From: an uncultured Gammaproteobacteria bacterium
Lineage (GTDB): Bacteria > Cyanobacteriota > Vampirovibrionia > Gastranaerophilales > CAZEDP01
Length of the DNA: 64,000 nucleotides
Assembly: GCA_964643065.1 (NCBI GenBank)
Contig: CAZXPD010000004.1
Span: 5,098 to 69,097, forward strand
Reading direction: 5' to 3'
Position 1 is the first letter of the stretch, and every line of letters starts with the position of its first letter. Position numbers and translations under genes: made by a program. Below are positions 156-21,550 of the stretch, piece after piece. A model generated the notes under the pieces. It did no database searches, was not told the DNA's origin, and worked only from the letters and a program-made list of their open reading frames with translations.

Positions 156-209
156 CCCCAATAGATAGCGTAAATAAACCCCAATAGCCGATTTAAATAA
201 CCCGCTTAC
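156..209. repeat. Shared 3' junction of toxin/immunity arrays (partner copy 10513..10566)
   Basis: Contains an exact 26-bp match, ccccaatagatagcgtaaataaaccc. Similarity continues through cccgcttac into the stop-codon region of the last immunity gene in both loci. Confidence 0.7.
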
Positions 210-511
210 TTCAAATTATACTTACTAGCCAATACATCAAGAACGCTTTTCGTTCTTTTTCTTAACTCATTTTCATCAATAAGACTTGGATGATCTCTTA
301 TTTCAGGATCAGGCTCATAATATGCAATACCCATTCTAACTTGATTCAAATACTCATATACATTGTGATTGTAACCAAAAATCTTGTCCACATAATCTTC
401 AAGATAATCCTCATAGTTGATTACAAACTCATCTATATCAATTTTATTATTCAAAAAATCATTAGCCATTTTTATCAAAAATTGAATATGGTTCATTGCT
501 TCACTTGTCAT
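206..511 (-). CDS. Small cytoplasmic immunity-type protein, copy 3 of a tandem triplet
   Basis: Track ORF 206..529 starts at GTG. I prefer ATG 511 because all four paralogs align from M-T-(S/N)-(E/D)-A and AGGA lies about 8 nt upstream. Conserved blocks are NDFL(N/G)N(K/R)IDI(D/N)EF and RK(R/E)TK(S/R)VLD(V/I)LA(N/S)KYNL(R/K). The FLxxxIxxxEF block recalls colicin-D-immunity-like proteins (from memory, not searched). Confidence 0.6.
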   Translation of the reverse strand: MTSEAMNHIQFLIKMANDFLNNKIDIDEFVINYEDYLEDYVDKIFGYNHNVYEYLNQVRMGIAYYEPDPEIRDHPSLIDENELRKRTKSVLDVLASKYNLK

Positions 512-525
512 ATTTGGTATCCTAG

Positions 526-831
526 TCACCTGAGATTATACTTATTAGCCAATACATCAAGAACCCTTTTCGTTTCCTTTCTCACTCCATCCTCATCAAG
601 CAAACATGGCAAATCTCGAGCTTCAGGAATTGATTCATAGTACTCAACACCCATATATATATGATCAAGATATTCATAAACTACCTTATTGTATTCTAAA
701 ATTTCTTTTGAGTGATTTTCAAAATAATCTTGATATTCAATATCAAATTCATTTATATCAATTCTATTATTCAAAAAATCATTAGCGATGTTTATTAAAA
801 ATTTTATATGATTCATTGCGTCACTTGTCAT
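526..831 (-). CDS. Small cytoplasmic immunity-type protein, copy 2 of a tandem triplet
   Basis: Paralog of 206..511 and 846..1151 with the same length and conserved blocks. Separated from each neighbour by 14 nt. Confidence 0.6.
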   Translation of the reverse strand: MTSDAMNHIKFLINIANDFLNNRIDINEFDIEYQDYFENHSKEILEYNKVVYEYLDHIYMGVEYYESIPEARDLPCLLDEDGVRKETKRVLDVLANKYNLR

Positions 832-845
832 ATTTGGTATCCTAG

Positions 846-1151
846 TCACCTGAGATTATATTTATTAGCCAATACATCAAGGACACTTTTAGTCCTCTTC
901 CTCACGCCGTCTTCATCAAGAAAGTACGGGCGATCCCTAGCCTCGGGAATAGATTCATAATTTGCAATTCCCATTCTTATCTGCGCAAGAAATTCATATA
1001 TTTCTTTACTATAATTGTGGATAACTTCTGTATAATCTACAAAATAATTCTCAAACTCAATACAAAATTCATCTATATCAATTTTATTACCCAGAAAATC
1101 ATTCGACATATTTATTAAATAATGTATGTGCTTTATTGCTTCATTTGTCAT
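846..1151 (-). CDS. Small cytoplasmic immunity-type protein, copy 1, directly downstream of orphan toxin module 1163..1846
   Basis: ATG 1151 lies 11 nt after the stop of 1163..1846, with GAGGA upstream. DNA 855..1151 matches 10572..10868 with 2 mismatches in 297 bp by manual alignment. Confidence 0.65.
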   Translation of the reverse strand: MTNEAIKHIHYLINMSNDFLGNKIDIDEFCIEFENYFVDYTEVIHNYSKEIYEFLAQIRMGIANYESIPEARDRPYFLDEDGVRKRTKSVLDVLANKYNLR

Positions 1152-1162
1152 ATTTATTTTCC

Positions 1163-1846
1163 TCATTTCTTCAAAATCCATTGCAATTTTATCTTTTTTG
1201 TGTTGATTGCATTAACAATCTCACCTGTATATCTATCAATAATTACAGCCACATTATCAGCATAACGGACATAATTATTTTCAATAGGATCATAATATAA
1301 ATCACCCTTTTTTAAAACTTCAAGAATTTTTTCTGTCGAACTGATTTTACCCTGATTAATACGTTGCACAATTCTTGACACTGCATGACGATTTACCAAA
1401 TAACCGTTATTTTTCAAAGTATAATATGTTCTATAAAGTTTTTCTTTGTAAAGAGACGGATTTGAAGGTTTACCTTTGTATACTTTGGGCATTTGAGCAA
1501 CTCTTTCTTCTATAAATTTTATTATTGCTTTTTCCGAGAGCCTCTCATATACGTTTCGGATTGATGGAGTTCTAGCCAAAGCCCCTTGTCCCATTTTGCC
1601 AATAACAGGTAGAGCTTTCGCAATAGCCTGTTCTTCAATACTTGGAACTCCGGCAAAACTTGCGGAATAAAGTCCGTAGTTTATTACATCGTTCACAGTT
1701 GCTTCTCGTGATTGCTGTGTTCCGGTTTTCCAATCATAAGAAAGCGGTCTAAATCCTTTTAATCCGGCATTATTTGAAGATTGAGCATTCCCGCCGCCAC
1801 CGCCATAATTATTAACGCCCTCCTCAAACTGTCCATTCTCAGCCAT
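1163..1846 (-). CDS. Orphan toxin C-terminal module (possible BECR/DUF4258-like RNase fold)
   Basis: The N-terminal MAENGQFEEGVNNYGGGGGNA matches the Gly hinge of 3382..5082. The DNA handle 1784..1849 equals 4129..4194 with 2 mismatches in 66 bp. The C-terminal pattern NRHAVSRIVQR...ILEVLKKG...VAVIIDRYTGEIVNAI resembles the HAxxRxxxR(8-12 aa)I..vL..G...vVv....g.IiT layout of DUF4258/RelE-like toxins (from memory). Confidence 0.55.
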   Translation of the reverse strand: MAENGQFEEGVNNYGGGGGNAQSSNNAGLKGFRPLSYDWKTGTQQSREATVNDVINYGLYSASFAGVPSIEEQAIAKALPVIGKMGQGALARTPSIRNVYERLSEKAIIKFIEERVAQMPKVYKGKPSNPSLYKEKLYRTYYTLKNNGYLVNRHAVSRIVQRINQGKISSTEKILEVLKKGDLYYDPIENNYVRYADNVAVIIDRYTGEIVNAINTKKIKLQWILKK

Positions 1847-1849
1847 ATT
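1784..1849. repeat. 66-bp recombination handle (partner 4129..4194) encoding the Gly hinge
   Basis: Manual alignment gives 64 of 66 identical bases. The flanks diverge completely on the C-terminal-coding side. Confidence 0.75.
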
Positions 1850-1895
1850 TTCAAATACGCTCTTTTTTAGTTGTAGAATTTCTTATTTAATTGCA

Positions 1896-2420
1896 TCAAA
1901 AAGCTATTTTAATCGACACAAGGAGCATAACGGTATAAAAAACAGGAATCAAAAATAATGTTATTAAGGATTTTTTGTATTGCATGACATACAATTGATA
2001 CAAGCCAACTAAAAGCATCAAACTTGTAAAATATAGAAACCAACTGAAAAAATAACTTGTAACAATCCAATCATCAGTAAACCCTCTTGCCGTGATATTT
2101 ATAACTCTTCTATATAAGAAATCAGAAAGCAATAACAAGAAAAGCACTATAGACGTTGAGATGGCAGGTATTTTCCAGCTATTAATTATTTGTCTAACTT
2201 TTTCTTTAAACTTTATATTTCCAGTGTATTTATACATTACAAAAATTAAAATATAAAAAAGACCAACTTCAGTAAACACATTATTGAAAAACTTGCTTAA
2301 AATGGTGTTGTTTTGAGTATCGCTAAGAAGGAAGAATACAAAGAATGATAAGTTGTAAAGCAAAATAAACAATATTTGCGGAAAACACAAATTATTCAAT
2401 TTATCACTCATTTTAATCAT
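1896..2420 (-). CDS. Multi-pass membrane protein, candidate immunity partner of module 2420..2779
   Basis: 174 aa with about 5 hydrophobic segments. Its start ATG shares one base with the TAA of the upstream ORF (TAATG coupling). Confidence 0.5.
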   Translation of the reverse strand: MIKMSDKLNNLCFPQILFILLYNLSFFVFFLLSDTQNNTILSKFFNNVFTEVGLFYILIFVMYKYTGNIKFKEKVRQIINSWKIPAISTSIVLFLLLLSDFLYRRVINITARGFTDDWIVTSYFFSWFLYFTSLMLLVGLYQLYVMQYKKSLITLFLIPVFYTVMLLVSIKIAF

Positions 2421-2779
2421 TACCTGTTCTTAGTTATCTTATTCAGCTCCGATTTATCTACTTTTATATCTATAAGGATGTAATAATTCTTTATTTCTTT
2501 GAGTAACTGTAGAAAAAATGCTAAATTGTTTGTTGTTGTAAATATGGGATCAGCTTTGTATCTCTGTATTTTTTCTAATTTAAAATCATACTTGTCATAA
2601 ATAATAGCAGAAAAATTGCCATTTTTGTCAATGTGCGGATATAGAACTGTAGCATCATGAATGCTTCCAAACCAATCCCTATCTTTGTTTTTATCAAATG
2701 TAATTGAATTTCCATAATAATTGCTTAGGAAATGATGTTTTTGAAGCCATTCAGGAACATCATTAGTAAAAGTGTACAT
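2420..2779 (-). CDS. Stand-alone or truncated copy of the DxYDF C-terminal domain (orphan fragment)
   Basis: NSITFDK...GSIHDATVLYPHIDKNGNFSAIIYDKYDF...KNYYILIDI aligns with the last ~115 aa of 14138..15796, 12512..13336 and 3382..5082. It lacks the upstream (S/P)DC segment that the other three have. Confidence 0.5.
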   Translation of the reverse strand: MYTFTNDVPEWLQKHHFLSNYYGNSITFDKNKDRDWFGSIHDATVLYPHIDKNGNFSAIIYDKYDFKLEKIQRYKADPIFTTTNNLAFFLQLLKEIKNYYILIDIKVDKSELNKITKNR

Positions 2780-2788: not shown

Positions 2789-3367
2789 TTAGCCATACAA
2801 GAGATCGAGTCCCAAATACATATCAAGACAAAACAATACTAAAGTTAAAAGTAAAAGTAAAATTGCTTTGCCGAATTTTTTTTTATATAGCTGATAGAAA
2901 CTGGCAAGTAGCATCAATTCAAAAAAATAGAATGTCCAAATACCACTAATGTTTAAAAGATCACTTTGCACTAAAAATATTTCATTTGGAGATTTATTTA
3001 ACATAAAGCGGGATTTTTCGTTATATGCTAAGTAAAAACATAGAACTTCATATAACACAAGCAAGGTAGTCGGTTGCCACCAAACGTTAAAAAATCTCAT
3101 TATTATATTTTTAACGTGTTCTTTATCTGTAAATTTATAAATCAGCCAAATAAAGAGCCCCGAAAGAACCAATCCGACTCCCAATAATTCAATATCCAAA
3201 TCCATTTTATTAAATCTGTTAAACCAAAGATTATCCACTAAAAGACTGTCAACTAAAACTAAAAATTCCGATGAGACATAAGGAATAACAAAAAATATGG
3301 CAAACAACTCAAGATTTAAATATTTTTTGAAGAATTTAAACATTCTCATTTTATAGCATCTAAGCAA
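2789..3367 (-). CDS. Multi-pass membrane protein, candidate immunity partner of 3382..5082
   Basis: 192 aa with 4-5 hydrophobic segments, starting 14 nt after the toxin stop. Paralog of 10910..11488, with near-identical ends and two divergent patches. Confidence 0.55.
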   Translation of the reverse strand: MLRCYKMRMFKFFKKYLNLELFAIFFVIPYVSSEFLVLVDSLLVDNLWFNRFNKMDLDIELLGVGLVLSGLFIWLIYKFTDKEHVKNIIMRFFNVWWQPTTLLVLYEVLCFYLAYNEKSRFMLNKSPNEIFLVQSDLLNISGIWTFYFFELMLLASFYQLYKKKFGKAILLLLLTLVLFCLDMYLGLDLLYG

Positions 3368-3381: not shown

Positions 3382-5082
3382 TTACTCTAGAATTTCTATA
3401 ATAAATATATAATTTTCTAACAAAGCAAAATTCTGAAGATAATAGGCAATATTATTAATCGCATTAGTTCTAGTTTTGTAAAAATCTTTAAATAGATACT
3501 TTGACACGTCTAATTTATGAAAATCATAAATATCAGAAATCACAACAGAATAATGACCTTTGCTATTCAATTTCACGTTATTTACTGTTACTTTACCAAG
3601 ACTCAGATGTAAATCCTGAGTTTTGTCAAATGAAATTGAATTAGGTGCCGAACCCGTTTTGAGTTTAGCAAGGAATTCCCTAAACTCGACTGACTGTTTT
3701 ACAGCTCGTGAAATTCTACTGTTTGGAGAATATTGCAAAACCTTTAATCTTTTGATATTGCCATTTTTGTCCCAAGTATCTATTGTTTGATCAAGCAATT
3801 TGCAGTCAGGAGTGCTAGACAAATCCTCAAGTTTGTTGATTGAATGTTTCATAAATTCGTATGTCAATGGTCTATAATTATTTTCTATATTGAATTTATA
3901 ATTAACTGCATTAAGCTTAGCTTTGATCTGAGCGTTGGTATTTTCTGTTATATTGGAGTTTGAATTTATCTCCTCATTGTACGGTCGCACATTTGGTTTT
4001 ATATTATCAAAATATGTCTGTTTATAAGAGGGCATACTTGCTATATTTTGATAAGGATCGGCAATATAAGGTTTTTCAGTTGCATATCCCTGTAAAGGGT
4101 TGCTATTGTTTCGACTTTCAGCCTGATTAGCATTCCCGCCGCCACCGCCATAATTATTAACACCCTCCTCAAACTGTTCATTCTCAGCCATATTCTCATA
4201 ACTGTTTATTTTGGCCATATTTTGCTGATACGATTCTTTTTTAGCCGTATATTTAGACCAAAGTTTTTTATGAACAGATTGATTATTATTTGTGGCTATT
4301 TCATTTTCAAGCTTGTCAAGATTAGTCTTTTGTTTAGACAGCGATACTTTAGCTTTATCTATTGCATTTTTCAGATTTCCTTTTGAAGCATCTAAATGAT
4401 GCGAATAGTTTGACACAGCCCCGGATGATTGAACTCCGCCCTCGTACTGTCCATTTTGTCCACCTGATTTTTGAGAAGTAAGTTTTTTAATGGAACTCAT
4501 CAGTTGCATGATTTGCTCTATCTTTTTCAAATCATTATTAACTTCCTCATCGACAGGGTCAGGCGCCGGACTGGGTTCAGGTTCTGGAGTAGGCTCGGGT
4601 TCCGGTTTAGGCTGAGGTTCTCCCTGCCCATCCGGTGGCAGCTTTCCATTATCAGGCGATTTTGGAAACTCGACTATTATCACTTTGCCCTTTAAGACTT
4701 TACCCTCAGGATTATTAGGGTCGGGATTAGGAGGGTTTTGATTTTGGTCGGAGTTAGGATCATTGTCAGGATTAGGATTTCCGTCTTCATCCGGTGACAT
4801 CCCCTGATAATCCCCATTTGATTGTCTGATTGGAGCAGACCTGTAATGTTCTCTGACATCAGTCCCGTCATCTTTTGTATAGGCGCTTACGTGAACAACT
4901 CCACAGCTTTCTTTTAAATCGCTTTCAGATGGTATTCCGATTACACCCAGTTGATAATCAATAGCTTTCTCATTAGCCGCAAATTCAGCCCTCGGCATTT
5001 TCGCGATTTCCTCTCTTGTGAATATTTTATTTGAATTATTTAATTTCGGGTTTGCATACCCCGAATAATTTCTTTTATCCAT
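3382..5082 (-). CDS. Modular polymorphic-toxin-like protein A (conserved N-domain, PE-rich linker, helical region, Gly hinge, DxYDF-family C-terminal domain)
   Basis: Start moved to ATG 5082 (the track uses TTG 5088). The N-terminal ~85 aa are about 85-90 percent identical to 14138..15796, including VHVSAYTKDDGT(D/N)VREHYRSAP. The linker is PQPKPEPEPTPEPEPSPAPDP and the hinge is NNYGGGGGN. No signal peptide was seen. Confidence 0.7.
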   Translation of the reverse strand: MDKRNYSGYANPKLNNSNKIFTREEIAKMPRAEFAANEKAIDYQLGVIGIPSESDLKESCGVVHVSAYTKDDGTDVREHYRSAPIRQSNGDYQGMSPDEDGNPNPDNDPNSDQNQNPPNPDPNNPEGKVLKGKVIIVEFPKSPDNGKLPPDGQGEPQPKPEPEPTPEPEPSPAPDPVDEEVNNDLKKIEQIMQLMSSIKKLTSQKSGGQNGQYEGGVQSSGAVSNYSHHLDASKGNLKNAIDKAKVSLSKQKTNLDKLENEIATNNNQSVHKKLWSKYTAKKESYQQNMAKINSYENMAENEQFEEGVNNYGGGGGNANQAESRNNSNPLQGYATEKPYIADPYQNIASMPSYKQTYFDNIKPNVRPYNEEINSNSNITENTNAQIKAKLNAVNYKFNIENNYRPLTYEFMKHSINKLEDLSSTPDCKLLDQTIDTWDKNGNIKRLKVLQYSPNSRISRAVKQSVEFREFLAKLKTGSAPNSISFDKTQDLHLSLGKVTVNNVKLNSKGHYSVVISDIYDFHKLDVSKYLFKDFYKTRTNAINNIAYYLQNFALLENYIFIIEILE

Positions 5083-5109
5083 GATCAACTCAATTCCTAT
5101 TATTTCTTG

Positions 5110-5829
5110 TTAAACATCCGTTCTGAAAAATTCTTCTATCATTGCTGAATTACAATCATTTCCTTTCTCAAACACAATCCTTCCTTCGGCGTCTCCGCCA
5201 TAGCCGTCCTGTCTTTGCATTTCAAGCAGATATTCAAGGAATTTTTCTCTTGTATATTTATATTTTTCGTCAGGTTTATAATTTTGCCTGTAAAGAGACG
5301 CAGTTCCCCACTCAATTACTTTTATGAACTTCTCGGGAATAAGAGGGACATCCGTTTCATCTGCGAGGTTCTCTTTTTCTTCTGTTTTATCTGCATTGAA
5401 TGCACAGTTTTGTGTCAAAAATTTTATTTGAACGGAATAAGAACTCTCCGGTGTCGGATCAAGTATTAATTTCCCGCCGAAAATCGAATATCTTAAGGGT
5501 TTACCGCTTCCTTCGGAAAGTTTATCGAGATCGCTGTGTTTTACAAAATAAAGCGGCAGAAGAGCTTCTTCAATTCTGACTCCGTCTTTCAAGATACTGC
5601 TTAATTCTACACTTTGCGAAATATCATACTCTTTTTGTTCAGCTGTTGTTTGGAAAGTATATTTTCTTTCCCTGAAAGAAAAAGGAAATCTCAAACATAC
5701 TTCGCCCAGTGTGTCTTTAATGTACTGTTTAATTTCAGGATAGGGCGAATTATCATCGGCAAAATTAACCGGCGGCTCCTCATGAACCAGCACACAAACA
5801 TTTTTCAATATATCGTAAAAATTACTCAT
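5110..5829 (-). CDS. Phage virion structural protein (possible head-tail adaptor)
   Basis: 239 aa, co-oriented and downstream of the capsid module. The assignment rests on position and size only. Confidence 0.35.
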   Translation of the reverse strand: MSNFYDILKNVCVLVHEEPPVNFADDNSPYPEIKQYIKDTLGEVCLRFPFSFRERKYTFQTTAEQKEYDISQSVELSSILKDGVRIEEALLPLYFVKHSDLDKLSEGSGKPLRYSIFGGKLILDPTPESSYSVQIKFLTQNCAFNADKTEEKENLADETDVPLIPEKFIKVIEWGTASLYRQNYKPDEKYKYTREKFLEYLLEMQRQDGYGGDAEGRIVFEKGNDCNSAMIEEFFRTDV

Positions 5830-5962: not shown

Positions 5963-6682
5963 ATGAAAAAAATATTTTTAACTTTATTTATAATTTTTAT
6001 TTACGGCAATTTTGCTTTGTCTCAAGAGCTAAATAATAGTTATTTACAAGCAGGCAATGATTTCTATAACAGCGGAAAGTACGATTCAGCCATAAAATCA
6101 TATAAAAAGGCTTTAAAAAAAGATAATAATAATTTCAAAATATTTTATGACTTAGGGTTGGCATATACTAAAAAAGGGATGATAAAACAAGCTGTTTTAA
6201 GTTACCAAAAAGCTATCGAAATGAACCCTTCTGATGATTTAACATACAATAATCTTGGTTCTTTGTATTTCAGAAAAAAGAATTTTAATAAAGCAATAGA
6301 TAGTTACAAAAAGGCTATTGAGATAAATCCTTCATTAAATATGGCGGTTGAAAATTTGGCTAATACATATTTTGAAATAAAGTCGATTGAATTAGCTTTC
6401 GATAATTTTAAAAAATTACCGGATTCTTATTCAATGGCTTCTTGGTCGCTCAATAAGCTTTCAGCTATTTACATTATCAAAGGTGATTACACATCTGCTA
6501 TCAGCATTTATAAAAAAATGATTGAACGTGAACCTAATTCCGAAATAAATTATTTCAATTTGGCTACTATTTTTGAAATAGTTGGCTTACAAGACTTAGC
6601 CGTTCAAAATTACCAAAAAGCTCTTGAAATCAATCCTCATTATATCCAGGCAAGTGAACAGCTAATAAAAATCAGAAATTGA
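5963..6682 (+). CDS. Secreted TPR-repeat protein
   Basis: N-terminal signal-like segment MKKIFLTLFIIFIYGNFALS, followed by repeated 34-aa units with A..Y.KA(L/I)(E/K).(N/D)P. Confidence 0.85.
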   Translation: MKKIFLTLFIIFIYGNFALSQELNNSYLQAGNDFYNSGKYDSAIKSYKKALKKDNNNFKIFYDLGLAYTKKGMIKQAVLSYQKAIEMNPSDDLTYNNLGSLYFRKKNFNKAIDSYKKAIEINPSLNMAVENLANTYFEIKSIELAFDNFKKLPDSYSMASWSLNKLSAIYIIKGDYTSAISIYKKMIEREPNSEINYFNLATIFEIVGLQDLAVQNYQKALEINPHYIQASEQLIKIRN

Positions 6683-7509: not shown

Positions 7510-8352
7510 CTATGATATAGTGCAAATTAATTTTGCCAGTGCATTGGGCACAACTGTTTTTGCTCCGTATACATAAAGCCCTCTTACGGCTGTGTCGAAA
7601 GAATCCTGAAGCCTGATTGATTCAACTTCAACAACCTGAGAGGCAAAGGTAACGGCATTGTTTGTTCCGGCAAGCACATAATATTTTCCTGCCGTAGCAT
7701 CGAAGTTAGTGCATACCAAAACGTCCAAACCGGCAATCTTTCCGATAGAACCTTCTCTCAAGGTATTATCGCCGGATTGAGTGGCGTGGATGAATTCCGG
7801 AGCCTGTATTAAAAGAGCTTCAATATCAGGATTAATGACAATCCAGGGTTTTTGACCTTTTGTGATAGCGTTAGCCTTTTTAAGAGCTTTTGCCATAGCT
7901 ACAAAATTCGAATAAATATTGTCTTTTGTCAGTTCAATCGGCGTTCCTTCTGAGCCTACGACATTTTCACTCGGAACATCGGCATGTTTTGCGAGTAAAA
8001 AACCGTCTTTAGCGAGGTCAATAGCAACACGGGCTCTTTCAAGATAACCGCTCATGATGTTGATATTTGACTGAGCTTTGGAAACATCGTCAACCTTGAA
8101 TGCAAAGTATTTTTTCTGGTCAATTAACAATGTTTGTAAGGGCGAAGTCAAATCATCATAAGTGATTGAACCGGCATATGTTTTAACGGTAACATTGCCG
8201 AAAGAACGGATGTATACCGTGTCGCCGGAATTTTTTATGTCCCCTTCAAAATCCCTGTTGATGCACTGCATCATAACGCCGGATTTGTCAAGAAGTGTGG
8301 TCAATTTTTTCGACCAAATTTCCGGGACAAAATTTGTTAAGTCATTAGCCAT
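7510..8352 (-). CDS. Major capsid protein (HK97 fold, P22-coat-like small type)
   Basis: 280 aa directly downstream of the scaffold-like ORF. The N-terminal FVPEIWSKK...NRDFEGDIK..GDTV pattern is typical of this capsid family (from memory). Confidence 0.7.
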   Translation of the reverse strand: MANDLTNFVPEIWSKKLTTLLDKSGVMMQCINRDFEGDIKNSGDTVYIRSFGNVTVKTYAGSITYDDLTSPLQTLLIDQKKYFAFKVDDVSKAQSNINIMSGYLERARVAIDLAKDGFLLAKHADVPSENVVGSEGTPIELTKDNIYSNFVAMAKALKKANAITKGQKPWIVINPDIEALLIQAPEFIHATQSGDNTLREGSIGKIAGLDVLVCTNFDATAGKYYVLAGTNNAVTFASQVVEVESIRLQDSFDTAVRGLYVYGAKTVVPNALAKLICTIS

Positions 8353-10491: not shown

Positions 10492-10562
10492 TGCAAAAAA
10501 GTCAAATCCCAACCCCAATAGATAGCGTAAATAAACCCTAACAGCCAATTTATATAACCCGC

Positions 10563-10868
10563 TTACCTCAAATTATATTTATTAGCCAATATATCAAGGA
10601 CACTTTTAGTCCTCTTCCTCACCCCGTCTTCATCAAGAAAGTACGGGCGATCCCTAGCCTCGGGAATAGATTCATAATTTGCAATTCCCATTCTTATCTG
10701 CGCAAGAAATTCATATATTTCTTTACTATAATTGTGGATAACTTCTGTATAATCTACAAAATAATTCTCAAACTCAATACAAAATTCATCTATATCAATT
10801 TTATTACCCAGAAAATCATTCGACATATTTATTAAATAATGTATGTGCTTTATTGCTTCATTTGTCAT
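10563..10868 (-). CDS. Small cytoplasmic immunity-type protein, orphan copy with no adjacent toxin
   Basis: 101 aa, differing from 846..1151 at only two nucleotide positions. Homology stops exactly at the ATG. Confidence 0.65.
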   Translation of the reverse strand: MTNEAIKHIHYLINMSNDFLGNKIDIDEFCIEFENYFVDYTEVIHNYSKEIYEFLAQIRMGIANYESIPEARDRPYFLDEDGVRKRTKSVLDILANKYNLR

Positions 10869-10909: not shown

Positions 10910-11488
10910 TTACCCATATATAAGGTCAAATCCAAAATAAATATCAAGACAAAACAATACTAAAGTTAAAAATAAAAGTAAAATTGCTTTGCCGAATTGT
11001 TTTTTATATAGCTGATAGAAACTGGCAAGTAGGACCAATCCAAAAAAATAGAATGCCCAAAAAAAACCAAAGCCTAAAAGATTTCCTTGTTCTAGAAAAG
11101 CTTCATGCGAAGGTTTGCTTAGCATAAAACGGGATTTTTCGTTATATGCTAAGCAAAAATATAGGACTTCATACGATACAAGCAAGACAATTGGTTGCCA
11201 CCAAACGTTAAAAAATCTCCTTATTATATTTTTAACGTATTCTTTATCTGTAAATTTATAAATCAGCCAAATAAATAAACCGGAAAGAACTAATCCGACT
11301 CCCAGCAATTCAATATCCAAATCCATTCTATTAAATCTGTTAAACCATAGATTATCCTCTAAAAAAATGCCAAGCAAAGCTAAACATTCCAATAAGGCGT
11401 ATGGGATAACAAAAAATAGGGCAAACAACTCAAGATTTAAATATTTTTTGAAGAATTTAAACATTCTCATTTTATAGCATCTAAGCAA
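10910..11488 (-). CDS. Multi-pass membrane protein, orphan paralog of 2789..3367
   Basis: 192 aa. The upstream intergenic cctttgccaatatt is conserved with locus A, but no toxin C-terminus precedes it. Confidence 0.55.
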   Translation of the reverse strand: MLRCYKMRMFKFFKKYLNLELFALFFVIPYALLECLALLGIFLEDNLWFNRFNRMDLDIELLGVGLVLSGLFIWLIYKFTDKEYVKNIIRRFFNVWWQPIVLLVSYEVLYFCLAYNEKSRFMLSKPSHEAFLEQGNLLGFGFFWAFYFFGLVLLASFYQLYKKQFGKAILLLFLTLVLFCLDIYFGFDLIYG

Positions 11489-11622: not shown

Positions 11623-12468
11623 ATGAATATTGGGAATTATAAAATTCAGTTGACTCGCTGGTTGATAAAACAACTCGCAAGCCCGTATTTGGCAATTTTT
11701 TTTATTATTACAATATCTGTCTTTTATCTGCAAATTAACGGTTGGGCAGTAAAAGATTATTATTTTGATCGAGAAAAGGCACAAATTGCGGTTGATAAAA
11801 GTTATGACGGGACATATAGCAATAATCTTATAAGAGAACTTGATTTGTTGACTAATAAGAAGTTCCTTCCCGTAAATCGGTCATATAATGCTTTAACGTT
11901 CTCTTTTATGTTATTATTACTGTTAATTATACTGAAAGTAAATTCTTACGAAGATTTTATAAAATTACCGGCTTTATCAAATAAAATAATTATATTTTCA
12001 TGGATTAATGTTTCTTATATCTTATTTTCTTATTTATTTATAGCTAAATTAATGAATGATATTGTTATTGAAGTTTTGCCCAGCACTGCTGACAGTTTAA
12101 GTATTCCTGAGTTATCAGCAGCCGTGTTTCTTTTTATTATAGCTATTCCCTATTATATTTTTACAAATCTATTTTTCTTTATTACATATAGAAAAACATA
12201 TAATATGAAAGTTGCTTTGAATAAATCTCTTCTTTTTTATAAACCGTTATTATCTTGGAAATATGGTTTTATAACTTTATTTCATATTTTTTCTATAATC
12301 TTATGTTTATTTTTGCTGATTGATTGGTTGCAGGGAAAATTTTATCTCTCTTTTTCCATCCAAATTATCCTGTCATTTATATGGATTTACCTTAATATAT
12401 CAGCTCTATCTGTACTTGCGAATAAATTTATTTCAAGTACAGAAAAACAAAACAACACCGTAATTTAA
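11623..12468 (+). CDS. Multi-pass membrane protein of unknown function
   Basis: 281 aa with about 7 hydrophobic segments. It is the only plus-strand gene inside locus B, convergent with 12512..13336. Confidence 0.5.
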   Translation: MNIGNYKIQLTRWLIKQLASPYLAIFFIITISVFYLQINGWAVKDYYFDREKAQIAVDKSYDGTYSNNLIRELDLLTNKKFLPVNRSYNALTFSFMLLLLLIILKVNSYEDFIKLPALSNKIIIFSWINVSYILFSYLFIAKLMNDIVIEVLPSTADSLSIPELSAAVFLFIIAIPYYIFTNLFFFITYRKTYNMKVALNKSLLFYKPLLSWKYGFITLFHIFSIILCLFLLIDWLQGKFYLSFSIQIILSFIWIYLNISALSVLANKFISSTEKQNNTVI

Positions 12469-12511: not shown

Positions 12512-13336
12512 TTACTTGTTATTCAATATTCTTGCTACTTGATACTTATCCAATTTGATATAAATAACTATAAAATAATTTTTTAGCAGACCTTTTTCTT
12601 GCAGATTGTACGCAGTTTTAACTAAAATGTTTCCTTCATTTGCAAAATTATAAACATCAATAACAATGGCATTAAAATTTCCGGCTTTGTCCAAGTGAGC
12701 ATTTATAATATCGGCAGAATTAATACTGTTACGTAGATCTTGCTTGGATTTAAATGTTTTTGAGCCATTTATGAACTGTCCATTTATCAATTTGGTTTTA
12801 TTAGTTAGTATAAACTCTTTGATATCTTGAGAATGAGCTATCTTATCAGCAAGAGGGTGTTTTGAAAATAAAATAACACCGGGACAATCAGAATTACCAA
12901 GTTGTGCTTTTATCTTGGACTCCACCCAAGCACGTATTGAGGGATCGTGTATATTATTTATACTGCCATAATAGAGACTATTTAAGGCATTTCCAATAGG
13001 ATAATTTATATGTGTTGAATGCAAAAATAATTTCGAAGATTCGGGGACATTAAAAACATTTCCGTATTTTTCGCCAACGTGAGCGCCAAAATCCATATTA
13101 TTTTTTAGCATTTGGTCGAACCAATTTGGTGAATTGTTCTTACTAGAATTTTGGCTATGGATAGTCTGACTAATAACCTTACTTGAAGATTGAGCAGGTA
13201 GACCACCACCACTTCCCTGATTTCCGTACCCATCCGCAATCCCCTGATAATCCTCATTTTGGAAGAGACTTTCAATATGATTCAGAGCTTGAGAATGTTT
13301 ATTCAGAGCTTGTTTCTTGGCATGTATTTTTTGCAT
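12512..13336 (-). CDS. Orphan C-terminal module of the DxYDF family (displaced 3' part of a 14138-type gene)
   Basis: It starts MQKIHAKKQALNKHSQALNHIESLFQNEDYQGIADGYGNQGSGG, identical to residues ~269-312 of 14138..15796. It then diverges into its own C-terminus with SDCPG ... LDKAGNFNAIVIDVYNF ... KNYFIVIYI. Confidence 0.6.
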   Translation of the reverse strand: MQKIHAKKQALNKHSQALNHIESLFQNEDYQGIADGYGNQGSGGGLPAQSSSKVISQTIHSQNSSKNNSPNWFDQMLKNNMDFGAHVGEKYGNVFNVPESSKLFLHSTHINYPIGNALNSLYYGSINNIHDPSIRAWVESKIKAQLGNSDCPGVILFSKHPLADKIAHSQDIKEFILTNKTKLINGQFINGSKTFKSKQDLRNSINSADIINAHLDKAGNFNAIVIDVYNFANEGNILVKTAYNLQEKGLLKNYFIVIYIKLDKYQVARILNNK

Positions 13337-13518
13337 CAGTTGACCGTATTTAGACTGATTTGTCGTATTTACGGCTTCATCAACAATTTTCTTCAGTTCA
13401 TTCCCTTGTTTTTGCAGAGATGATTTAGATTTGTTAATTGCTCTCTTTAAATTCGTCTTGGATAATTCAATGCTATTAGAATACCTGCTGATTGCTCCTT
13501 AATATTTTGAACTGACAG
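13205..13518. repeat. 314-bp recombination handle (partner 14861..15174)
   Basis: Manual alignment gives 6 mismatches in 314 bp, and the first ~200 bp are identical. Homology extends 182 bp upstream of the orphan ATG, where TCA (Ser214 in the full-length gene, 15155..15157) is TAA (13499..13501). Confidence 0.85.
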
Positions 13519-13558: not shown

Positions 13559-14131
13559 CTACATTTTCTTTAATAACATTAAATAGCTTTTGATTTTCCT
13601 AAAAAGAAATAAAAATATAAAAATTGCCAAATAGCTTCCTGTTAATCCTCCAAAAACTAACCTCCAAAATAGATCTGAATCTGAATAAAAGTAAGAGTGT
13701 TCTACAAAAGTTCGTGCAAAATATGAAGATATAATTGCAAAAATATCAACTATTATAGCAAACAATACTATCCTTAGTTGGAGGTTACTATTTTGAAAAA
13801 TAAGTCTAATCCATGTTATAATTTCCACGTTTTTACTCTGTCTTAGAATGATAAAGATTGTTAATGGTAGTAATAAATATTTTATAATTATTAAGAGAGG
13901 CATTAAATATACCGCCAACATCAATATAACAGAAATGCCCTCTATTTGTGCTTTATATAGCCAATCAATATATGAATACCCCATATATGCAAGATATGTT
14001 GCTATGAGTGGAAATATATTTGTTAAAATAATTAAATTTGCAAAAACAAATAAAATAGTCTCCCATTTTAATAGATTTTTAACTATAATTTGCCAGTTCA
14101 ATTTTTCTATAATTTTATCAATCATGAACAA
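13559..14131 (-). CDS. Multi-pass membrane protein, candidate immunity partner of 14138..15796
   Basis: 190 aa with about 5 hydrophobic segments, starting 6 nt after the toxin stop. Confidence 0.55.
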   Translation of the reverse strand: MFMIDKIIEKLNWQIIVKNLLKWETILFVFANLIILTNIFPLIATYLAYMGYSYIDWLYKAQIEGISVILMLAVYLMPLLIIIKYLLLPLTIFIILRQSKNVEIITWIRLIFQNSNLQLRIVLFAIIVDIFAIISSYFARTFVEHSYFYSDSDLFWRLVFGGLTGSYLAIFIFLFLFRKIKSYLMLLKKM

Positions 14132-14137: not shown

Positions 14138-15796
14138 TTATCTAGCTCTATTTATTTTAACAAAAACTATGACAAAATAATTTTCGATATTCTTATTTTC
14201 TTGCCAAGTTTCCATTTGGTTATTAATTTGAGCTTTAATGCTGTATTGATTTTTCATTTTACTAAAATCATATATATCAAAAATTAATGCATTTAAATTT
14301 CCGTTTTTATCAATCCATGCTTTATAAATTGTGGCATTATGCAAAGAATTTGCCAAATCTGTATCACGATAGAAGAAAACTGGTTTGAGAGTTATTGAAC
14401 CTTTTTTAAATAAATCATCTTTGTTTCTATATATTACATCTCTAAAGTCATTGGAATTTTGTATTTTTTTTGCGACATTCGATTCTGAGGTATAAATTAC
14501 TCCCTTACAATCTGATTTGTGTAATATATCACGGATTCGTTCTTGTAGATAAGTTCGTAATTGTTTGTCATTGATTTGTCGAATACTTTGAATCAACTGG
14601 GCATTTGGATTATTTAAAACTTCTCTAAGCCAAGTTAGCGAGTTATGGGCAAATTCTGTTGCAATGGGTACATAAGGTACATTTTTAAGTTTTCTAGCAA
14701 TATCAAATTTCATTCTATCCCAAAATTCTGAAGGTTCATGTAAGTCGGAACTTTTGAGAGTTTTATTTAAATCTGAATAAATATTTTGATTTCTGGCATT
14801 ATTATAATCTGATTTTTTATGAGTCTTACTGGCTGAGTTATTTTCTCCAACATTGGGTACACCACCACTTCCCTGATTTCCGTACCCATCCGCAATCCCC
14901 TGATAATCCTCATTTTGGAAGAGACTTTCAATATGATTCAGAGCTTGAGAATGTTTATTCAGAGCTTGTTTCTTGGCATGTATTTTTTGCATCAGTTGAC
15001 CGTATTTAGACTGATTTGTCGTATTTACGGCTTCATCAACAATTTTCTTCAGTTCATTTCCTTGTTTTTGCAGAGATGCTTTAGATTTGTTAATTGCTCT
15101 CTTTAAATTCGTCTTGGATAATTCAATGTTATTAGAATACCTGTTTATTGCTCCTGAATATTTTGAACTGACAGGCAATGACAGATTTTCTTTATTAGCT
15201 TTACTCGAAGCAATTTCTTTCAGACTGTTCATACTTTGTACTATTTGTTTTGCAAGGTCAGCTATTTCTTTAAGTTCGGAAATATTTTGTTCCTCATCTT
15301 CATTCGACGGTTGAGGATCAGGCTCTGGAGGTGGCTCAGGTTGCGGATCAGGTAAAGGCTCTTCCTGATCGTCCGGCGGTACAGGCAGCATTACCCCGTC
15401 GTTATTTTTATATACGTTTTTTTCAACACTTCCTTTATAAACACGCGGAATTTTTTCTTCACTGTTATTGTCCTGAGTATTATTATCATTATTTTCGTTC
15501 TCATCCCCCTCAACTCCCATCCCCCAACCATTTGACACTCTGTTGGGAGCAGAGCGGTAATGCTCTCTGACATTCGTTCCGTCATCTTTTGTATAAGCGC
15601 TTACGTGAACAACTCCACTGCTTTCCTGCAAATCGCTTTCAGAGGGTATTCCAATTACACCCAGTTGATAATCAATAGCTTTTTCATTAGCCGCAAATTC
15701 AGCCCTTGGCATTTTTGCGACTTCCTCTCTTGTGAATATTTTATTTGAATTATTCAATTTTGGATTTATAAATCCTGCAAAATTTTTTCTATCCAC
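14138..15796 (-). CDS. Modular polymorphic-toxin-like protein B (same architecture as 3382..5082)
   Basis: GTG start. The N-terminal 85 aa are shared with protein A. The linker is PDDQEEPLPDPQPEPPPEPDPQP and the hinge is DGYGNQGSGG. The C-terminus carries SDCKG ... IDKNGNLNALIFDIYDF ... ENYFVIVFV. It is the first minus-strand gene after the portal. Confidence 0.7.
   Translation of the reverse strand: MDRKNFAGFINPKLNNSNKIFTREEVAKMPRAEFAANEKAIDYQLGVIGIPSESDLQESSGVVHVSAYTKDDGTNVREHYRSAPNRVSNGWGMGVEGDENENNDNNTQDNNSEEKIPRVYKGSVEKNVYKNNDGVMLPVPPDDQEEPLPDPQPEPPPEPDPQPSNEDEEQNISELKEIADLAKQIVQSMNSLKEIASSKANKENLSLPVSSKYSGAINRYSNNIELSKTNLKRAINKSKASLQKQGNELKKIVDEAVNTTNQSKYGQLMQKIHAKKQALNKHSQALNHIESLFQNEDYQGIADGYGNQGSGGVPNVGENNSASKTHKKSDYNNARNQNIYSDLNKTLKSSDLHEPSEFWDRMKFDIARKLKNVPYVPIATEFAHNSLTWLREVLNNPNAQLIQSIRQINDKQLRTYLQERIRDILHKSDCKGVIYTSESNVAKKIQNSNDFRDVIYRNKDDLFKKGSITLKPVFFYRDTDLANSLHNATIYKAWIDKNGNLNALIFDIYDFSKMKNQYSIKAQINNQMETWQENKNIENYFVIVFVKINRAR
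14861..15174. repeat. 314-bp handle inside the full-length gene (partner 13205..13518)
   Basis: See 13205..13518. The offset between copies is 1656 bp. Confidence 0.85.
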
Positions 15797-15866: not shown

Positions 15867-16247
15867 ATGACAAACTATTTAGCGGTATTCATAGGCGGTG
15901 GGATAGGCTCTTTATTGAGATATTTAATTTCCTTGTATTTTATAAAACATATAACTAATTCGTTTCCCTATGCCACATTTACTGTAAACTTAATAGGCTG
16001 TCTTTTTATAGGCTTTATAATTTCCCTTTCAATGAACAAACCAGGCTTGTGCGGAACCAGCCTCCTTTTATTCCTTACGGTTGGAATTGCAGGAGGCTTT
16101 ACAACGTTCAGCACATTCAGCTACGAGACTTTCGCTCTTTTAAAGAACGGAGCTTTATCTGTAGCTGTTGTTTATGTTTTTCTGAGTTCATTGTTAGGCT
16201 TATTTGCGGTTTATATGGGTTCATTACTCGGGAAAGCATTCAACTGA
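15867..16247 (+). CDS. crcB: Fluoride ion channel CrcB/Fluc
   Basis: 126 aa with 4 TM segments and the motifs GGGIGSLLRY and GGFTTFSTFSYE. Confidence 0.9.
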   Translation: MTNYLAVFIGGGIGSLLRYLISLYFIKHITNSFPYATFTVNLIGCLFIGFIISLSMNKPGLCGTSLLLFLTVGIAGGFTTFSTFSYETFALLKNGALSVAVVYVFLSSLLGLFAVYMGSLLGKAFN

Positions 16248-17884: not shown

Positions 17885-17988
17885 TACAGTCTCCTTATGT
17901 AAACTTTTTATTAACAATTGAAATAAATTAGCAATTTTATATTTTTACGGATTTTAATTATTTAGAATTAAAAATTCGAGGAAAAATT

Positions 17989-18360
17989 ATGAACAGCATA
18001 ACATTTTCATTAATAGGAAAAAGCGCATATATAAACAAAAATCAAACTAATACAAAAACTTTGTCCTATTTATATTCAAAGCAAATTAATGACAAAATCT
18101 CCTTTGGCGATGATGTGGATGTTTATGATTTAGACACATCACTAGAAGGGCAACTACAACGTTTTCTTAAAATTAATCCTGATAAAGACAGTTTGCCGGT
18201 TGTAAAATTAAAGACATACAGAACTTTTAATTTACCAATGGGAGATTTAATCGAAGAATTATTAAGAGATAAAAAATCAGTTAAAGAAATAGAAGATTTT
18301 TTAAGGAAGCTGAATGAAATAGAAGAACAAATAGGCGGACCCGATTGTGATGATGACTAA
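17989..18360 (+). CDS. Hypothetical protein
   Basis: 123-aa ORF with GAGGAAAAA upstream. Confidence 0.45.
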   Translation: MNSITFSLIGKSAYINKNQTNTKTLSYLYSKQINDKISFGDDVDVYDLDTSLEGQLQRFLKINPDKDSLPVVKLKTYRTFNLPMGDLIEELLRDKKSVKEIEDFLRKLNEIEEQIGGPDCDDD

Positions 18361-18439
18361 CTTTTCTTTCAAATTATTTTAAAATTCCATAGAACCTAAT
18401 CTCTGCTATAATCATCCTAATCACAAACGGCTTTAAGTC

Positions 18440-18658
18440 ATGAAAACCCAAATCCTTATCCTCATAATTTTAGGCTTTATTTTTGCGGTAATTATCTCTT
18501 TTACCCATGTTCAACTGCATTTCGCCGTAAAAAAATCCATTTCAAACAAGCCCAAGCCAATTGATAAGAATTCCGAAATCGAAGATTTGAGACAAGAAAT
18601 ACAATCTCTTAAGTCACGCATTGAAAAACTTGAAAACGAGGGTACAGAAAAATTCTGA
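18440..18658 (+). CDS. Small membrane-anchored coiled-coil protein
   Basis: N-terminal TM segment ILILIILGFIFAVIISF followed by the helical EIEDLRQEIQSLKSRIEKLENE. Confidence 0.45.
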   Translation: MKTQILILIILGFIFAVIISFTHVQLHFAVKKSISNKPKPIDKNSEIEDLRQEIQSLKSRIEKLENEGTEKF

Positions 18659-18731
18659 TTTTTCTGCATCTTCAACACTAATCCTTAAAAAGCCAAGCAC
18701 AGCTTTCTATATAAATATTTTGCGGAATTTT

Positions 18732-19817: not shown

Positions 19818-19872
19818 TTTTTATTTTCACGGCTTTTATAATTATCATTAAATATATAAGGAATAAACTATA

Positions 19873-21510: not shown

Positions 21511-21550
21511 AATTCATATTTGTTAAAGTTAATTATTAAAGTATTTTTTG

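Follow-up and report, generated by a model that had tools for sequence, protein, structure and literature searches.

ImmD-type immunity genes in tandem and a fourth, distant copy within the polymorphic toxin locus of an SU10-like prophage

The stretch of DNA analyzed here (64,000 nt, referred to as the window) carries on its minus strand a series of genes that begins with a full-length toxin gene and ends with an array of three small immunity genes. Listed in the 5' to 3' direction of that strand, the features of this region (locus A) are the following, the coordinates of the immunity genes including stop codons and their 101-aa lengths being counted from the conserved ATG:

3382..5088, minus strand: full-length polymorphic toxin 2, about 566-568 aa, directly after an SU10-type adaptor gene
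2789..3367, minus strand: multi-pass membrane protein of 192 aa, presumed immunity protein of toxin 2, with a paralog at 10910..11488
1784..1853, minus strand: junction repeat of 70 nt, 96% identical to 4129..4198 in the full-length toxin gene (repeat family D5)
1163..1846, minus strand: orphan toxin cassette, 227 aa, made up of a 22-aa junction, a linker modeled with low confidence and, at residues ~122-225, a C-terminal domain
846..1151, minus strand: immunity copy 1, 101 aa plus stop, ImmD/Colicin_immun family
832..845, minus strand: spacer between copies 1 and 2, 14 nt, CTAGGATACCAAAT, which includes an AGGA ribosome-binding site
526..831, minus strand: immunity copy 2, 101 aa plus stop, PF09204 at 28.0 bits
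512..525, minus strand: spacer between copies 2 and 3, 14 nt, same sequence as that at 832..845
206..511, minus strand: immunity copy 3, 101 aa plus stop, last gene of the array, PF09204 at 28.8 bits
156..205, minus strand: array-terminal 3' flank of ~50 nt, in common with the flank of the fourth copy in locus B

Both junctions within the array consist of a TGA stop, the same 14 nt and an ATG, and the description given by an initial sequence-only reading (three 101-aa paralogs placed head to tail with 14-nt spacers) was borne out by the ORFs and the identical spacers. The minus strand is taken as the coding strand of the array because of its Pfam matches, homologs and dN/dS values below 1; plus-strand ORFs over the array (e.g., 290..640) were rejected as genes, being without homologs where the minus frames hold Pfam matches and evidence purifying selection. 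The conserved ATG of copy 1 (position 1151) is preceded 8 nt upstream by GAGGA and lies 11 nt past the stop of the toxin gene 1163..1846; an alternative ATG (1166..1164) overlaps this stop (ATGA at 1163..1166) and would yield a protein of 106 aa. No minus-strand terminator was found between the toxin gene and the array, the promoter and terminator scans around both loci being uninformative, and the 3' flank at 156..205 showed an RNA fold z of -2.85. A repeat search joined the array to a distant gene in one family of four 300-nt copies, spaced by 320, 320, and 9717 nt, with identities to copy 1 of 73, 69, and 99%. Immunity arrays recur in this family, relatives having 2-3 copies and an unrelated contig having 2, in agreement with the stockpiling of immunity genes for which a copy-number survey had been proposed.

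The array genes are immunity genes of the ImmD/Colicin_immun family (PF09204), which gives a precise identity to what had been called an immunity-type gene. The scores of copies 3 and 2 exceed the gathering score of 22, while copy 1 and the locus B copy reach 16 bits, below that threshold, and are 61-62% identical to copies 2 and 3; precomputed Pfam matches were also present on the relatives P0004, P0006, and P0007. The AF2 model of copy 1 (pLDDT 95.7) contains four long helices and retrieved the ImmD chains 1tfk_B and 1v74_B at ranks 1-2 in Foldseek (probability 1.00, full length, TM 0.58-0.67 over 87-94 aligned columns), the following PDB matches having E >= 0.49. Identity to ImmD is just 20-21%; single-sequence and profile searches of PDB sequences with the immunity proteins gave nothing meaningful, and ImmD was recovered by fold comparison only. 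PHROGs gave no family for the immunity gene or the toxins, a word-indexed protein search returned only 7 immunity relatives, and scans with the immunity profile gave no match in viral contigs, none in metagenome contigs, and the source MAG only among GTDB genomes. ImmD was described as the main immunity of Tox-ColD, including toxins delivered by MuF proteins (Zhang et al., 2012; PMC3482391).

The orphan status of the toxin cassette 1163..1846 is deduced from the 70-nt junction repeat shared at 96% with 3382..5088, its 22-aa junction being homologous to the pre-toxin region of the full-length protein. The existence of an orphan toxin at this position, anticipated by the earlier reading, is supported by the 227-aa ORF, the junction repeat, C-terminal homologs and a natural fusion in the divergent relative L001, in which a 518-aa protein carries the C-terminus of the window's toxin (81% over 233 aa) and is directly followed by two ImmD genes. 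A HMMER search with the toxin domain against 1.84 billion representatives retrieved 61 proteins (69-527 aa), with the match always in the C-terminal ~100 residues. Among the 51 homologs scanned, the N-terminal parts matched Phage_Mu_F (10), Phage_min_cap2 (3) and Rhs/YD (1-2). The contexts examined include a MuF toxin located after an SPP1-type portal (L012) and a toxin gene that has no phage genes around it and is preceded by a PAAR-like DUF4280 gene and two metabolic genes; apart from L001, the next gene was matched by the immunity profile in 5/5 contexts. The toxin domain has no Pfam family (including no Colicin_D match) and no sequence match to any solved structure (1V74 chain A included), is absent from GenBank phages, and retrieved only itself in the word-indexed protein search.

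With regard to its structure, the AF2 model of the toxin domain (pLDDT 94-98) shows helices at residues 130-146, 153-164, and 171-180 followed by a four-stranded sheet. The best PDB matches in Foldseek were CdiA-CT from NC101 (probability 0.87), colicin E5, RelE and ParE, all with E >0.1, for which reason the RNase assignment is tentative. DUF4258, assigned in a 2026 preprint to the colicin-like branch of BECR toxins, was matched by one of the 51 homologs (2.5e-4), and a phage DUF4258 protein appeared at rank 22 of a BFVD search with the toxin model. His154 is invariant across the toxin family; the surrounding consensus is roughly H-x-L-N-R-x-x-G-R, of which the window's protein keeps only the His and the final Arg. 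Judging from the model, the fold looks like, but is not proven to be, that of a colicin-like (BECR) RNase; both toxicity and RNase activity are inferred for the domain.

Nearly 10 kb away, a second set of related genes (locus B) includes the fourth immunity copy:

14138..15796, minus strand: full-length polymorphic toxin 1, 552 aa, after the portal gene, heading locus B
10910..11488, minus strand: 192-aa membrane-protein gene, paralog of 2789..3367, directly upstream of the fourth immunity copy
10563..10868, minus strand: fourth immunity copy, 101 aa plus stop, with no toxin of matching type beside it
10513..10562, minus strand: 3' flank of the fourth copy, homologous to 156..205

The two membrane-protein genes form repeat family D3 (84% over 300 nt), and the 192-aa protein has no Pfam match. 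Locus B also contains an orphan cassette (12512..13336), the start of which is 98% identical over 300 nt to 14138..15796 (repeat family D2, junction repeat 13204..13503 vs 14860..15159). The 552-aa and 568-aa proteins of the window and the 518-aa protein of L001 are 79-81% identical in their N-terminal ~95-97 aa and differ in their C-termini. Altogether, the traits of polymorphic toxins found here comprise a shared N-terminus, exchangeable C-termini, a recurring C-terminal domain and junction homology of the orphan cassettes.

Terminase, portal, major head protein and adaptor genes were identified, which places the locus in the head module of an SU10-like prophage and not in a chromosomal island for strain warfare; the earlier reading had spoken of inter-strain warfare loci. 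Toxin 1 follows the portal gene (16211..17917), with a reverse-strand CrcB gene alone intervening. This siting in the head module, adjoining the portal gene, is MuF-like; with respect to the N-terminal domain that defines MuF proteins, Phage_Mu_F gave no Pfam match in the full-length toxins, whether the whole proteins (E values up to 0.1) or their N-terminal 97 aa (E values up to 1) were scanned. Neither Pfam nor PHROGs gave a family for this carrier domain, which retrieved nothing in the word-indexed protein search and is absent from viral contigs and GenBank phages; a metagenome scan gave five weak loci, in the best of which (L014) the domain lies at the C-terminus of an unrelated 190-aa protein. 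As the carrier has no known family, its packaging into virions would be proposed by analogy with MuF toxins only. No integrase or replication genes were seen in the window or in the readable parts of related contigs.

Several observations of the earlier reading on copy 1 and the locus B copy hold: 855..1151 and 10572..10868 differ at exactly 2 of 297 nt, there is no similarity 5' of the start codon, and no toxin of that type accompanies the locus B copy. With the final codons and the stop added, the count rises to 5 in 306 nt. The earlier reading concluded that the gene had lost its toxin. In such a history, locus B would once have been a complete toxin-immunity module of this type, and after deletion of the toxin the orphan immunity gene would continue to guard against toxins of locus A or of neighbors. 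The end of homology at the start codon would fit such a deletion, and orphan immunity genes left after toxin loss are well known in CDI/Rhs loci (Poole et al., 2011; PMC3150448). This history is nevertheless unlikely. The 41 nt that separate the locus B copy from the membrane-protein gene upstream (10910..11488) contain no toxin remnant, and the divergent L001 keeps the same toxin-less layout, with two immunity copies located 2 nt behind a 188-aa membrane-protein gene, which indicates that the layout is old and stable. Moreover, the last 9 nt and the ~50-nt 3' flank of the locus B copy are unlike copy 1 and like the end and flank of copy 3 (68/75 identical), and the 26-nt core of this flank occurs nowhere else, no chance occurrence being expected. 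We therefore regard the locus B copy as a gene of the copy-1 type with an array-terminal flank, and probably not as the stump of a decayed toxin module.

Comparison with the sister phage L003 provides an explanation for the 99% identity that does not involve toxin loss. The window and L003 are 99.5% identical across 5.9 kb (merely 23 mismatches and 5 gap openings by BLAST over the whole 5.9 kb), and the locus B copy is 100% identical between them. In an ungapped gene-by-gene comparison of copy 1, 30/30 differences fell within nt 102-190 (89 nt, codons 34-64), a clustering with a chance probability of ~1e-53 in a uniform-placement estimate, and in the window this 89-nt patch is identical to the locus B copy. 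Based on these sequence patterns, an exchange between the two loci, by gene conversion or by duplication, best accounts for how little copy 1 and the locus B copy differ, and a conversion may have run in either direction.

The array itself had been described as a triplication. The values of dS among the paralogs (about 0.86-1.6) rule out a recent event, and protein identity is 61-62% (copy 1 vs copy 2, 62%; copy 1 vs copy 3, 61%); the pairwise dN/dS comparison that had been proposed gave 0.17-0.30 (0.21 for copy 1 vs copy 2), evidencing purifying selection. As read from their sequences, the paralogs are old, and recombination has turned them into mosaics. The immunity copies of the window, L001 and L003 combine the segment types in different ways, and variability is concentrated in residues 34-64 and also in the loop residues 74-78. 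Copy 2 is 88% identical at the protein level to L001_8983, a recombinant in that its 3' third is of the copy-1 type. In its C-terminal third, copy 3 shares 68% identity with the immunity gene located behind a divergent toxin homolog (L008_733), the corresponding values of copies 1 and 2 being 44 and 41%, and the first gene behind a toxin of the 1163..1846 type always has the same C-terminal segment type. None of the relatives has a disrupted version of the extra copies, and those of L003 are 100% identical to those of the window.

It could be argued that the extra copies are redundant duplicates, fixed by dosage or by neutral tandem duplication, which neutralize the same toxin and have undergone no diversification in specificity. 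The toxin of L003 is 100% identical to that of the window in spite of a copy 1 that differs at 16/101 residues, suggesting tolerance of variation, and this observation implies either that specificity is not determined by the variable patch or that only one of these alleles can be the true cognate; an overall dN/dS well below 1 would also agree with redundancy. Against it, the copies remain intact in every relative although they share only 62% identity and their dS is saturated, the variation is concentrated in one defined patch and one loop, copy 3 is in its C-terminal third far closer than copies 1 and 2 to the immunity of a 57%-identical toxin variant, and the gene next to this toxin type never departs from its C-terminal segment type. 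We consider redundancy to be quite improbable.

ImmD-type proteins inhibit a tRNase, and some host defenses are tRNases. A role of the array proteins as phage accessory or anti-defense factors (e.g., inhibitors of host anticodon nucleases that share the ImmD fold), with which this property and the location of the genes in a prophage structural module would be compatible, is very remote, as an ImmD-like gene lies directly downstream of the same toxin domain in every context examined, including the one without phage genes (PAAR-like DUF4280 and two metabolic genes), and as toxin-immunity pairs typically show such close spacing and an ATGA overlap of this kind at the toxin stop.

Altogether, the evidence makes it probable that the array consists of ImmD-type genes belonging to a phage-borne polymorphic toxin locus that operates as follows. 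On the minus strand, the full-length toxin gene 3382..5088, placed behind the head-tail adaptor gene, is followed by two spare C-terminal cassettes that look promoterless and are each accompanied by one or more immunity genes, 1163..1846 being the last cassette. The C-terminal ~105 residues of the latter would act in the cytoplasm, most likely as a colicin-like (BECR-fold) RNase with His154 as the catalytic residue. With respect to the pairing of paralogs and toxins, we infer from gene order that copy 1 is the presumed cognate inhibitor of this toxin; by analogy with ImmD it may form a 1:1 complex in which the substrate-binding face of the toxin is covered. The old paralogs 2 and 3 are maintained by selection and most likely neutralize variant toxins of the same family from related phages, in addition to serving as potential donors and acceptors in recombination. 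The conserved 5' and 3' blocks and the identical spacers could allow the exchange of segments among paralogs, and the 70-nt junction repeat could allow the spare toxin and its immunity genes to be swapped onto the expressed gene, L001 showing the swapped state. The locus B copy would be held nearly identical to copy 1 by a recent conversion or duplication between loci.

A broader reading, in which the 552- and 568-aa proteins represent an undescribed, non-MuF family of virion-associated toxins and the ImmD arrays provide immunity against injection, is put forward as a speculative and less than likely extension. The host element would be an SU10-like podoviral prophage, possibly defective or GTA-like in view of the lack of integrase and replication genes in the sequence covered, the lysogens of which would be protected from RNase toxins delivered by related particles, and gene conversion from one toxin locus of the prophage to the other would serve to re-tune the central hypervariable patch of the immunity genes.

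As a polymorphic toxin-immunity locus, the region is clear but fairly ordinary, its main peculiarity being that it is phage-borne without a MuF carrier domain. It illustrates cleanly, in a natural setting, the storage and reshuffling of a toxin-immunity repertoire, with a spare cassette, a swapped state in a relative and an immunity array that has conserved blocks for recombination, and the 89-nt conversion between two loci of one prophage represents a datable event. It also links the ImmD family to a rare, unclassified toxin domain that occurs on MuF, Rhs and PAAR-linked proteins and on a fourth, unnamed phage carrier. If this carrier is packaged into virions, phage-delivered polymorphic toxins would reach beyond MuF, and the combination of a 100-aa toxin domain, a 101-aa immunity protein and natural chimeras would constitute a small and tractable system for mapping immunity specificity.

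Among known systems, the closest counterpart of the immunity genes is the pair colicin D/ImmD (1V74, 1TFK), in which a small (~90-100 aa), all-helical immunity protein is likewise encoded directly after the toxin domain; PF09204 is above threshold for two of the copies, and the predicted fold fits ImmD and no other PDB entry. Unlike that pair, the partner toxin described here is not detectably colicin D (its weak structural matches are of BECR type), and the genes are carried by a prophage instead of a colicin plasmid and occur in arrays instead of singly.

The genomic setting resembles that of MuF toxins (Jamet et al., 2017, PMC5576092; PMC3482391), including Bxa (Alexei et al., 2024; PMC11699363), in the portal-adjacent location within the head-morphogenesis module and in the succession of a conserved N-terminus, a variable C-terminal toxin and a small immunity ORF, and the same toxin domain occurs on genuine MuF proteins (10/51 homologs, as well as L012). 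The differences are an N-terminal domain of ~95 aa with no Phage_Mu_F match, the presence of two full-length toxin genes per prophage (one behind the portal and one behind the adaptor gene), and the orphan C-terminal cassettes and immunity arrays, the word "orphan" being absent from the main text of the MuF paper.

Spare cassettes with immunity genes downstream are shared with the orphan CT/immunity cassettes of CDI and Rhs systems (Poole et al., 2011, PMC3150448; Koskiniemi et al., 2014, PMC3967940), as is the pre-toxin junction homology that permits swapping (here 70 nt at 96% and 300 nt at 98%), and the swapped state is seen in L001. Delivery would depend on a phage and not on T5SS or T6SS, and the junction is Gly-rich (NYGGGGGN) instead of VENN or PxxxxDPxGL.

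Finally, the esaG/tipC arrays of T7SS loci (Garrett et al., 2022; PMC9484751) are also series of immunity genes that differ from one another, each having a variable core between conserved 5' and 3' blocks, in which recombination between paralogs generates mosaic genes and changes in copy number. The array of this prophage differs from them in its size (2-3 copies vs up to 12) and in its phage context within a Gram-negative-type MAG, and here the exchange also appears to take place between two loci 9.7 kb apart.

Locus A, which runs from toxin 2 through the immunity array, and locus B, which runs from toxin 1 through a fourth immunity copy, both lie on the minus strand within the head module of a prophage. 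In locus A, toxin 2 is followed by a 192-aa membrane protein, a 119-aa orphan with a 174-aa membrane protein, the 227-aa orphan toxin and three ImmD genes; in locus B, toxin 1 and a membrane immunity gene are followed by the orphan cassette 12512..13336, a 192-aa membrane protein and the fourth ImmD copy. In relatives, tail and lysis genes come after the array, and the rest of the window, from ~22.7 kb on, consists of ordinary bacterial chromosome.

Features of the prophage region
20230..21510, -, terminase
18732..19055 and 19259..19591, two paralogous XRE-type HTH genes
16211..17917, -, portal
14138..15796, -, toxin 1, 552 aa (locus B)
13559..14131, -, membrane protein after toxin 1
12512..13336, -, orphan cassette (locus B)
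10910..11488, -, 192-aa membrane protein (locus B)
10563..10868, -, fourth immunity copy (locus B), grouped with the array copies by repeat search
10513..10562 and 156..205, -, array-terminal 3' flanks, ~50 nt, each following the final immunity gene of its locus
7510..8352, -, major head protein, grouped with the adaptor and a scaffold gene (-)
5110..5829, -, SU10-type adaptor
3382..5088, -, toxin 2, 568 aa (locus A)
2789..3367, -, 192-aa membrane protein (locus A)
2420..2779, -, 119-aa orphan (locus A)
1896..2420, -, 174-aa membrane protein (locus A)
1163..1846, -, orphan toxin cassette, 227 aa
846..1151, -, immunity copy 1, ORF, 101 aa from conserved ATG
526..831, -, immunity copy 2, ORF, 101 aa from conserved ATG
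206..511, -, immunity copy 3, ORF, 101 aa from conserved ATG

Copies 3 and 2 scored 28.8 and 28.0 bits in Pfam against Colicin_immun (PF09204, the colicin D immunity family; gathering score 22 bits), and copy 1 and the locus B copy 16 bits each. Sequence searches with the immunity proteins matched no PDB chain. An AlphaFold2 model obtained from nine family members (pLDDT 95.7; helices 2-20, 26-39, 41-47, 49-63 and 80-98) had the ImmD chains 1tfk_B and 1v74_B as its sole convincing Foldseek matches in the PDB (prob 1.00, TM 0.58-0.67, 20-21% identity, full length), the next-ranked match having E = 0.49. Based on the Pfam scores and this fold match, the array genes and the locus B copy were filed as putative divergent ImmD-family immunity genes. 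The observation made in the sequence-only reading, a tandem immunity-type array with an almost identical copy elsewhere, was confirmed, and its interpretation is supported in part.

The product of 1163..1846, which had been read as an orphan toxin, is a real C-terminal cassette, as evidenced by junction homology to 3382..5088 and by a fused form in L001, a divergent related prophage contig from a MAG titled "uncultured Gammaproteobacteria bacterium". The cassette starts MAENGQFEEGVNNYGGGGGNA, an internal segment of the 568-aa protein, and the junction DNA (1784..1853 vs 4129..4198) is 96% identical over 70 nt by repeat search. L001 encodes a 518-aa full-length protein that has the N-terminus common to the 552-aa and 568-aa window proteins and the C-terminus of the window orphan (81% over 233 aa, ~92% across the last 113 residues), and its gene is directly followed by two ImmD-type genes. 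What the window carries as a spare is, in L001, the expressed version.

A HMMER search of 1.84 billion representative proteins recovered 61 relatives of the orphan toxin (69-527 aa), all matching through the C-terminal ~100 residues; among 51 of them that were scanned, the N-terminal part was Phage_Mu_F in 10, Phage_min_cap2 in 3 and Rhs/YD repeats in 1-2. In five of five unrelated contigs the gene after the toxin homolog encodes a 92-101-aa protein matching the window immunity profile (E 1e-32 to 2e-3, computed in that small set), and two of these five proteins carry precomputed Colicin_immun matches. Upstream of one toxin homolog lies a PAAR-like DUF4280 gene, and a second homolog, a MuF protein, is encoded directly 3' of an SPP1-type portal gene; the toxin-immunity pairing is therefore conserved across delivery systems. 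The closest homolog (P0009, 57% identity), on the unrelated short contig L008, one of the five, is followed by a tandem ImmD-like pair (733..1029 and 1153..1425) with a mutual identity of only 33%, so immunity doubling recurs independently in this family.

The toxin domain belongs to no Pfam family, and its sequence matches none of the solved structures. Its model, confident from residue ~100 onward (pLDDT 94-98), consists of three helices and then a four-stranded sheet, and its best Foldseek matches were CdiA-CT of E. coli NC101 (prob 0.87), colicin E5, RelE and ParE, all BECR or RelE-type RNase folds, with every E > 0.1. His154 is invariant throughout the family, frequently in a motif that is roughly H-x-L-N-R-x-x-G-R, of which just the His and the last Arg are present in the window toxin. 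One family member matches DUF4258, and weak BFVD matches include a phage DUF4258 protein. A 2026 preprint treats DUF4258 and Ntox49 as one and assigns them to the colicin-like BECR branch, whose catalytic His lies in the helix that precedes the core, and for Tox-ColD the main immunity is listed as ImmD, MuF-delivered toxins included (Zhang et al., 2012, PMC3482391). The toxin and immunity functions of the window genes are inferred.

The array genes are separated by TGA, CTAGGATACCAAAT and ATG, both spacers being identical. By repeat search the start-to-start distances among the four copies are 320, 320 and 9717 nt, and the identities of the other three to copy 1 are 73%, 69% and 99%. The count reported earlier for 855..1151 vs 10572..10868 (2 mismatches in 297 nt) is exact; over the full 306 nt there are 5, the remaining three within the last 9 nt. 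Homology had been said to end at the start codon, which holds on the 5' side, where the two upstream regions are unrelated; the 3' side had been missed, where the last 9 nt and ~50 nt past the stop of the locus B copy are of the type of the copy 3 end and flank, not of copy 1 (68/75 identical). A 26-nt core of this flank occurs at two sites only in 64 kb (0 expected by chance). The duplicated unit therefore comprises the gene together with the array-terminal flank and is cut off sharply on its 5' side, at the start codon. The flank shared by the two loci has direct repeats within it (CTATTGGGG occurs twice); its predicted RNA is more stably folded than shuffled controls (z = -2.85) but has no U-tract, and the flank may serve in processing, as a terminator or in recombination.

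Comparison with the sister phage contig L003, 99.5% identical over 5.9 kb, clarifies the near-identity of copy 1 and the locus B copy. Between the two contigs, identity is 100% for each of the orphan toxin, copy 2, copy 3 and the locus B copy, and in copy 1 all 30 differences of an ungapped comparison fall within nt 102-190 (codons 34-64), a clustering with a chance probability of ~1e-53 by our own uniform-placement estimate. As BLAST gives only 23 mismatches and 5 gap openings for the entire 5.9 kb, the divergence is confined to this patch, in which window copy 1 has the sequence of the locus B copy. Most simply, copy 1 would have received a short conversion tract from locus B in the window's lineage; alternatively, the L003 patch may have been replaced from an outside donor. 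Whichever the direction, the near-identity appears to be the product of inter-locus exchange and not of decay of a toxin module. The proposal that the locus B copy has lost its toxin is not supported: no toxin remnant was found upstream of it, and a toxin-less layout is kept in L001, whose locus B carries two ImmD genes without toxin directly behind the membrane-protein gene.

The three array genes are old paralogs. Pairwise identity in the array is 61-62% for protein and 70-74% for DNA, with dS 0.86-1.6, which argues against a recent triplication; dN/dS, a check proposed in the sequence-only reading, was 0.17-0.30. The copies vary mostly within residues 34-64, where mean entropy is 1.13 (flanking thirds, 0.55 and 0.43), and within a loop at residues 74-78; the 5' ends, 3' ends and spacers are conserved. 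Among L001 immunity genes, L001_8983 is a mosaic (first two thirds copy-2-like, last third copy-1-like) and L001_1383 has a C-terminal segment of copy 3 type, and a RPYFLDEDGVRKRTKS segment occurs in every first gene after an orphan-type toxin (copy 1 of the window and of L003, and L001_8669). In its C-terminal third, copy 3 shares 68% identity (copy 1, 44%; copy 2, 41%) with the immunity protein of the P0009 toxin variant, a toxin 57% identical to that of the window; this likeness gives weak but real support to diversified immunity specificities.

The remaining toxin C-termini (3382..5088, 14138..15796, 12512..13336 and 2420..2779, all -) share the motif DKNGN..A.I.D.YDF, and behind each comes a multi-pass membrane protein of 174-192 aa without Pfam family. 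They look to be a second toxin type, as yet unclassified, whose immunity proteins are embedded in the membrane; this suggests the envelope as target. A 281-aa multi-pass membrane ORF without Pfam match (11623..12468, +), also found in the related contig L005, splits locus B between 12512..13336 and the 192-aa membrane gene. A CrcB fluoride-channel gene (126 aa, 15867..16247, +) is squeezed in on the opposite strand between portal and toxin 1, sharing 37 nt with the 3' end of the portal gene; the arrangement recurs in L005, with a Pfam CRCB match, and is odd cargo in a phage head module. A TPR-repeat protein (239 aa, 5963..6682, +), encoded on the opposite strand between adaptor and head genes, has a signal-peptide-like N-terminus, its gene containing internal 40-nt repeats (family D6). 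A few kb from the prophage edge, a 399-aa protein (26179..27378, -) with an OLD-like TOPRIM domain (PF20469, E 3.7e-13) may be a defence protein.

No integrase, replication or excision genes were seen between the terminase and the host genes (17900..22700), nor downstream of the tail and lysis genes of relatives (L001 9649..15298); the two XRE-type HTH genes were the only ones present. It may be that the prophage is defective or that it produces GTA-like particles.

The locus joins four known themes, namely ImmD immunity, phage-borne polymorphic toxins, orphan cassettes and recombining tandem immunity arrays. As a phage-borne polymorphic toxin system it works like the MuF loci (Zhang et al., 2012, PMC3482391; Jamet, 2017, PMC5576092; Alexei, 2024, PMC11699363); however, no Pfam or PHROG family, and in particular not Phage_Mu_F, the N-terminus that defines MuF proteins, matches the N-terminal ~95 residues that the full-length toxins have in common. 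The ~70-aa core of this carrier domain (KIFTREEIAKM ... V.V..Y.R.DGT.V..YYRS) also forms the C-terminus of an unrelated 190-aa protein on a human gut metagenome contig (L014 1448..2020) and is therefore a mobile module that is not specific to toxins of the window type. Orphan C-terminal/immunity cassettes are likewise found in CDI and Rhs loci, and the arrays of esaG and tipC, whose pattern of conserved blocks drives recombination among immunity paralogs (Garrett et al., 2022, PMC9484751), are recombining tandem arrays with the same block pattern. New here are a carrier domain other than MuF, the pairing of a rare, unclassified toxin domain with ImmD-like proteins (the immunity family forms 7 clusters among 5.8 billion public proteins, from two or three phage variants only) and a documented inter-locus conversion event.
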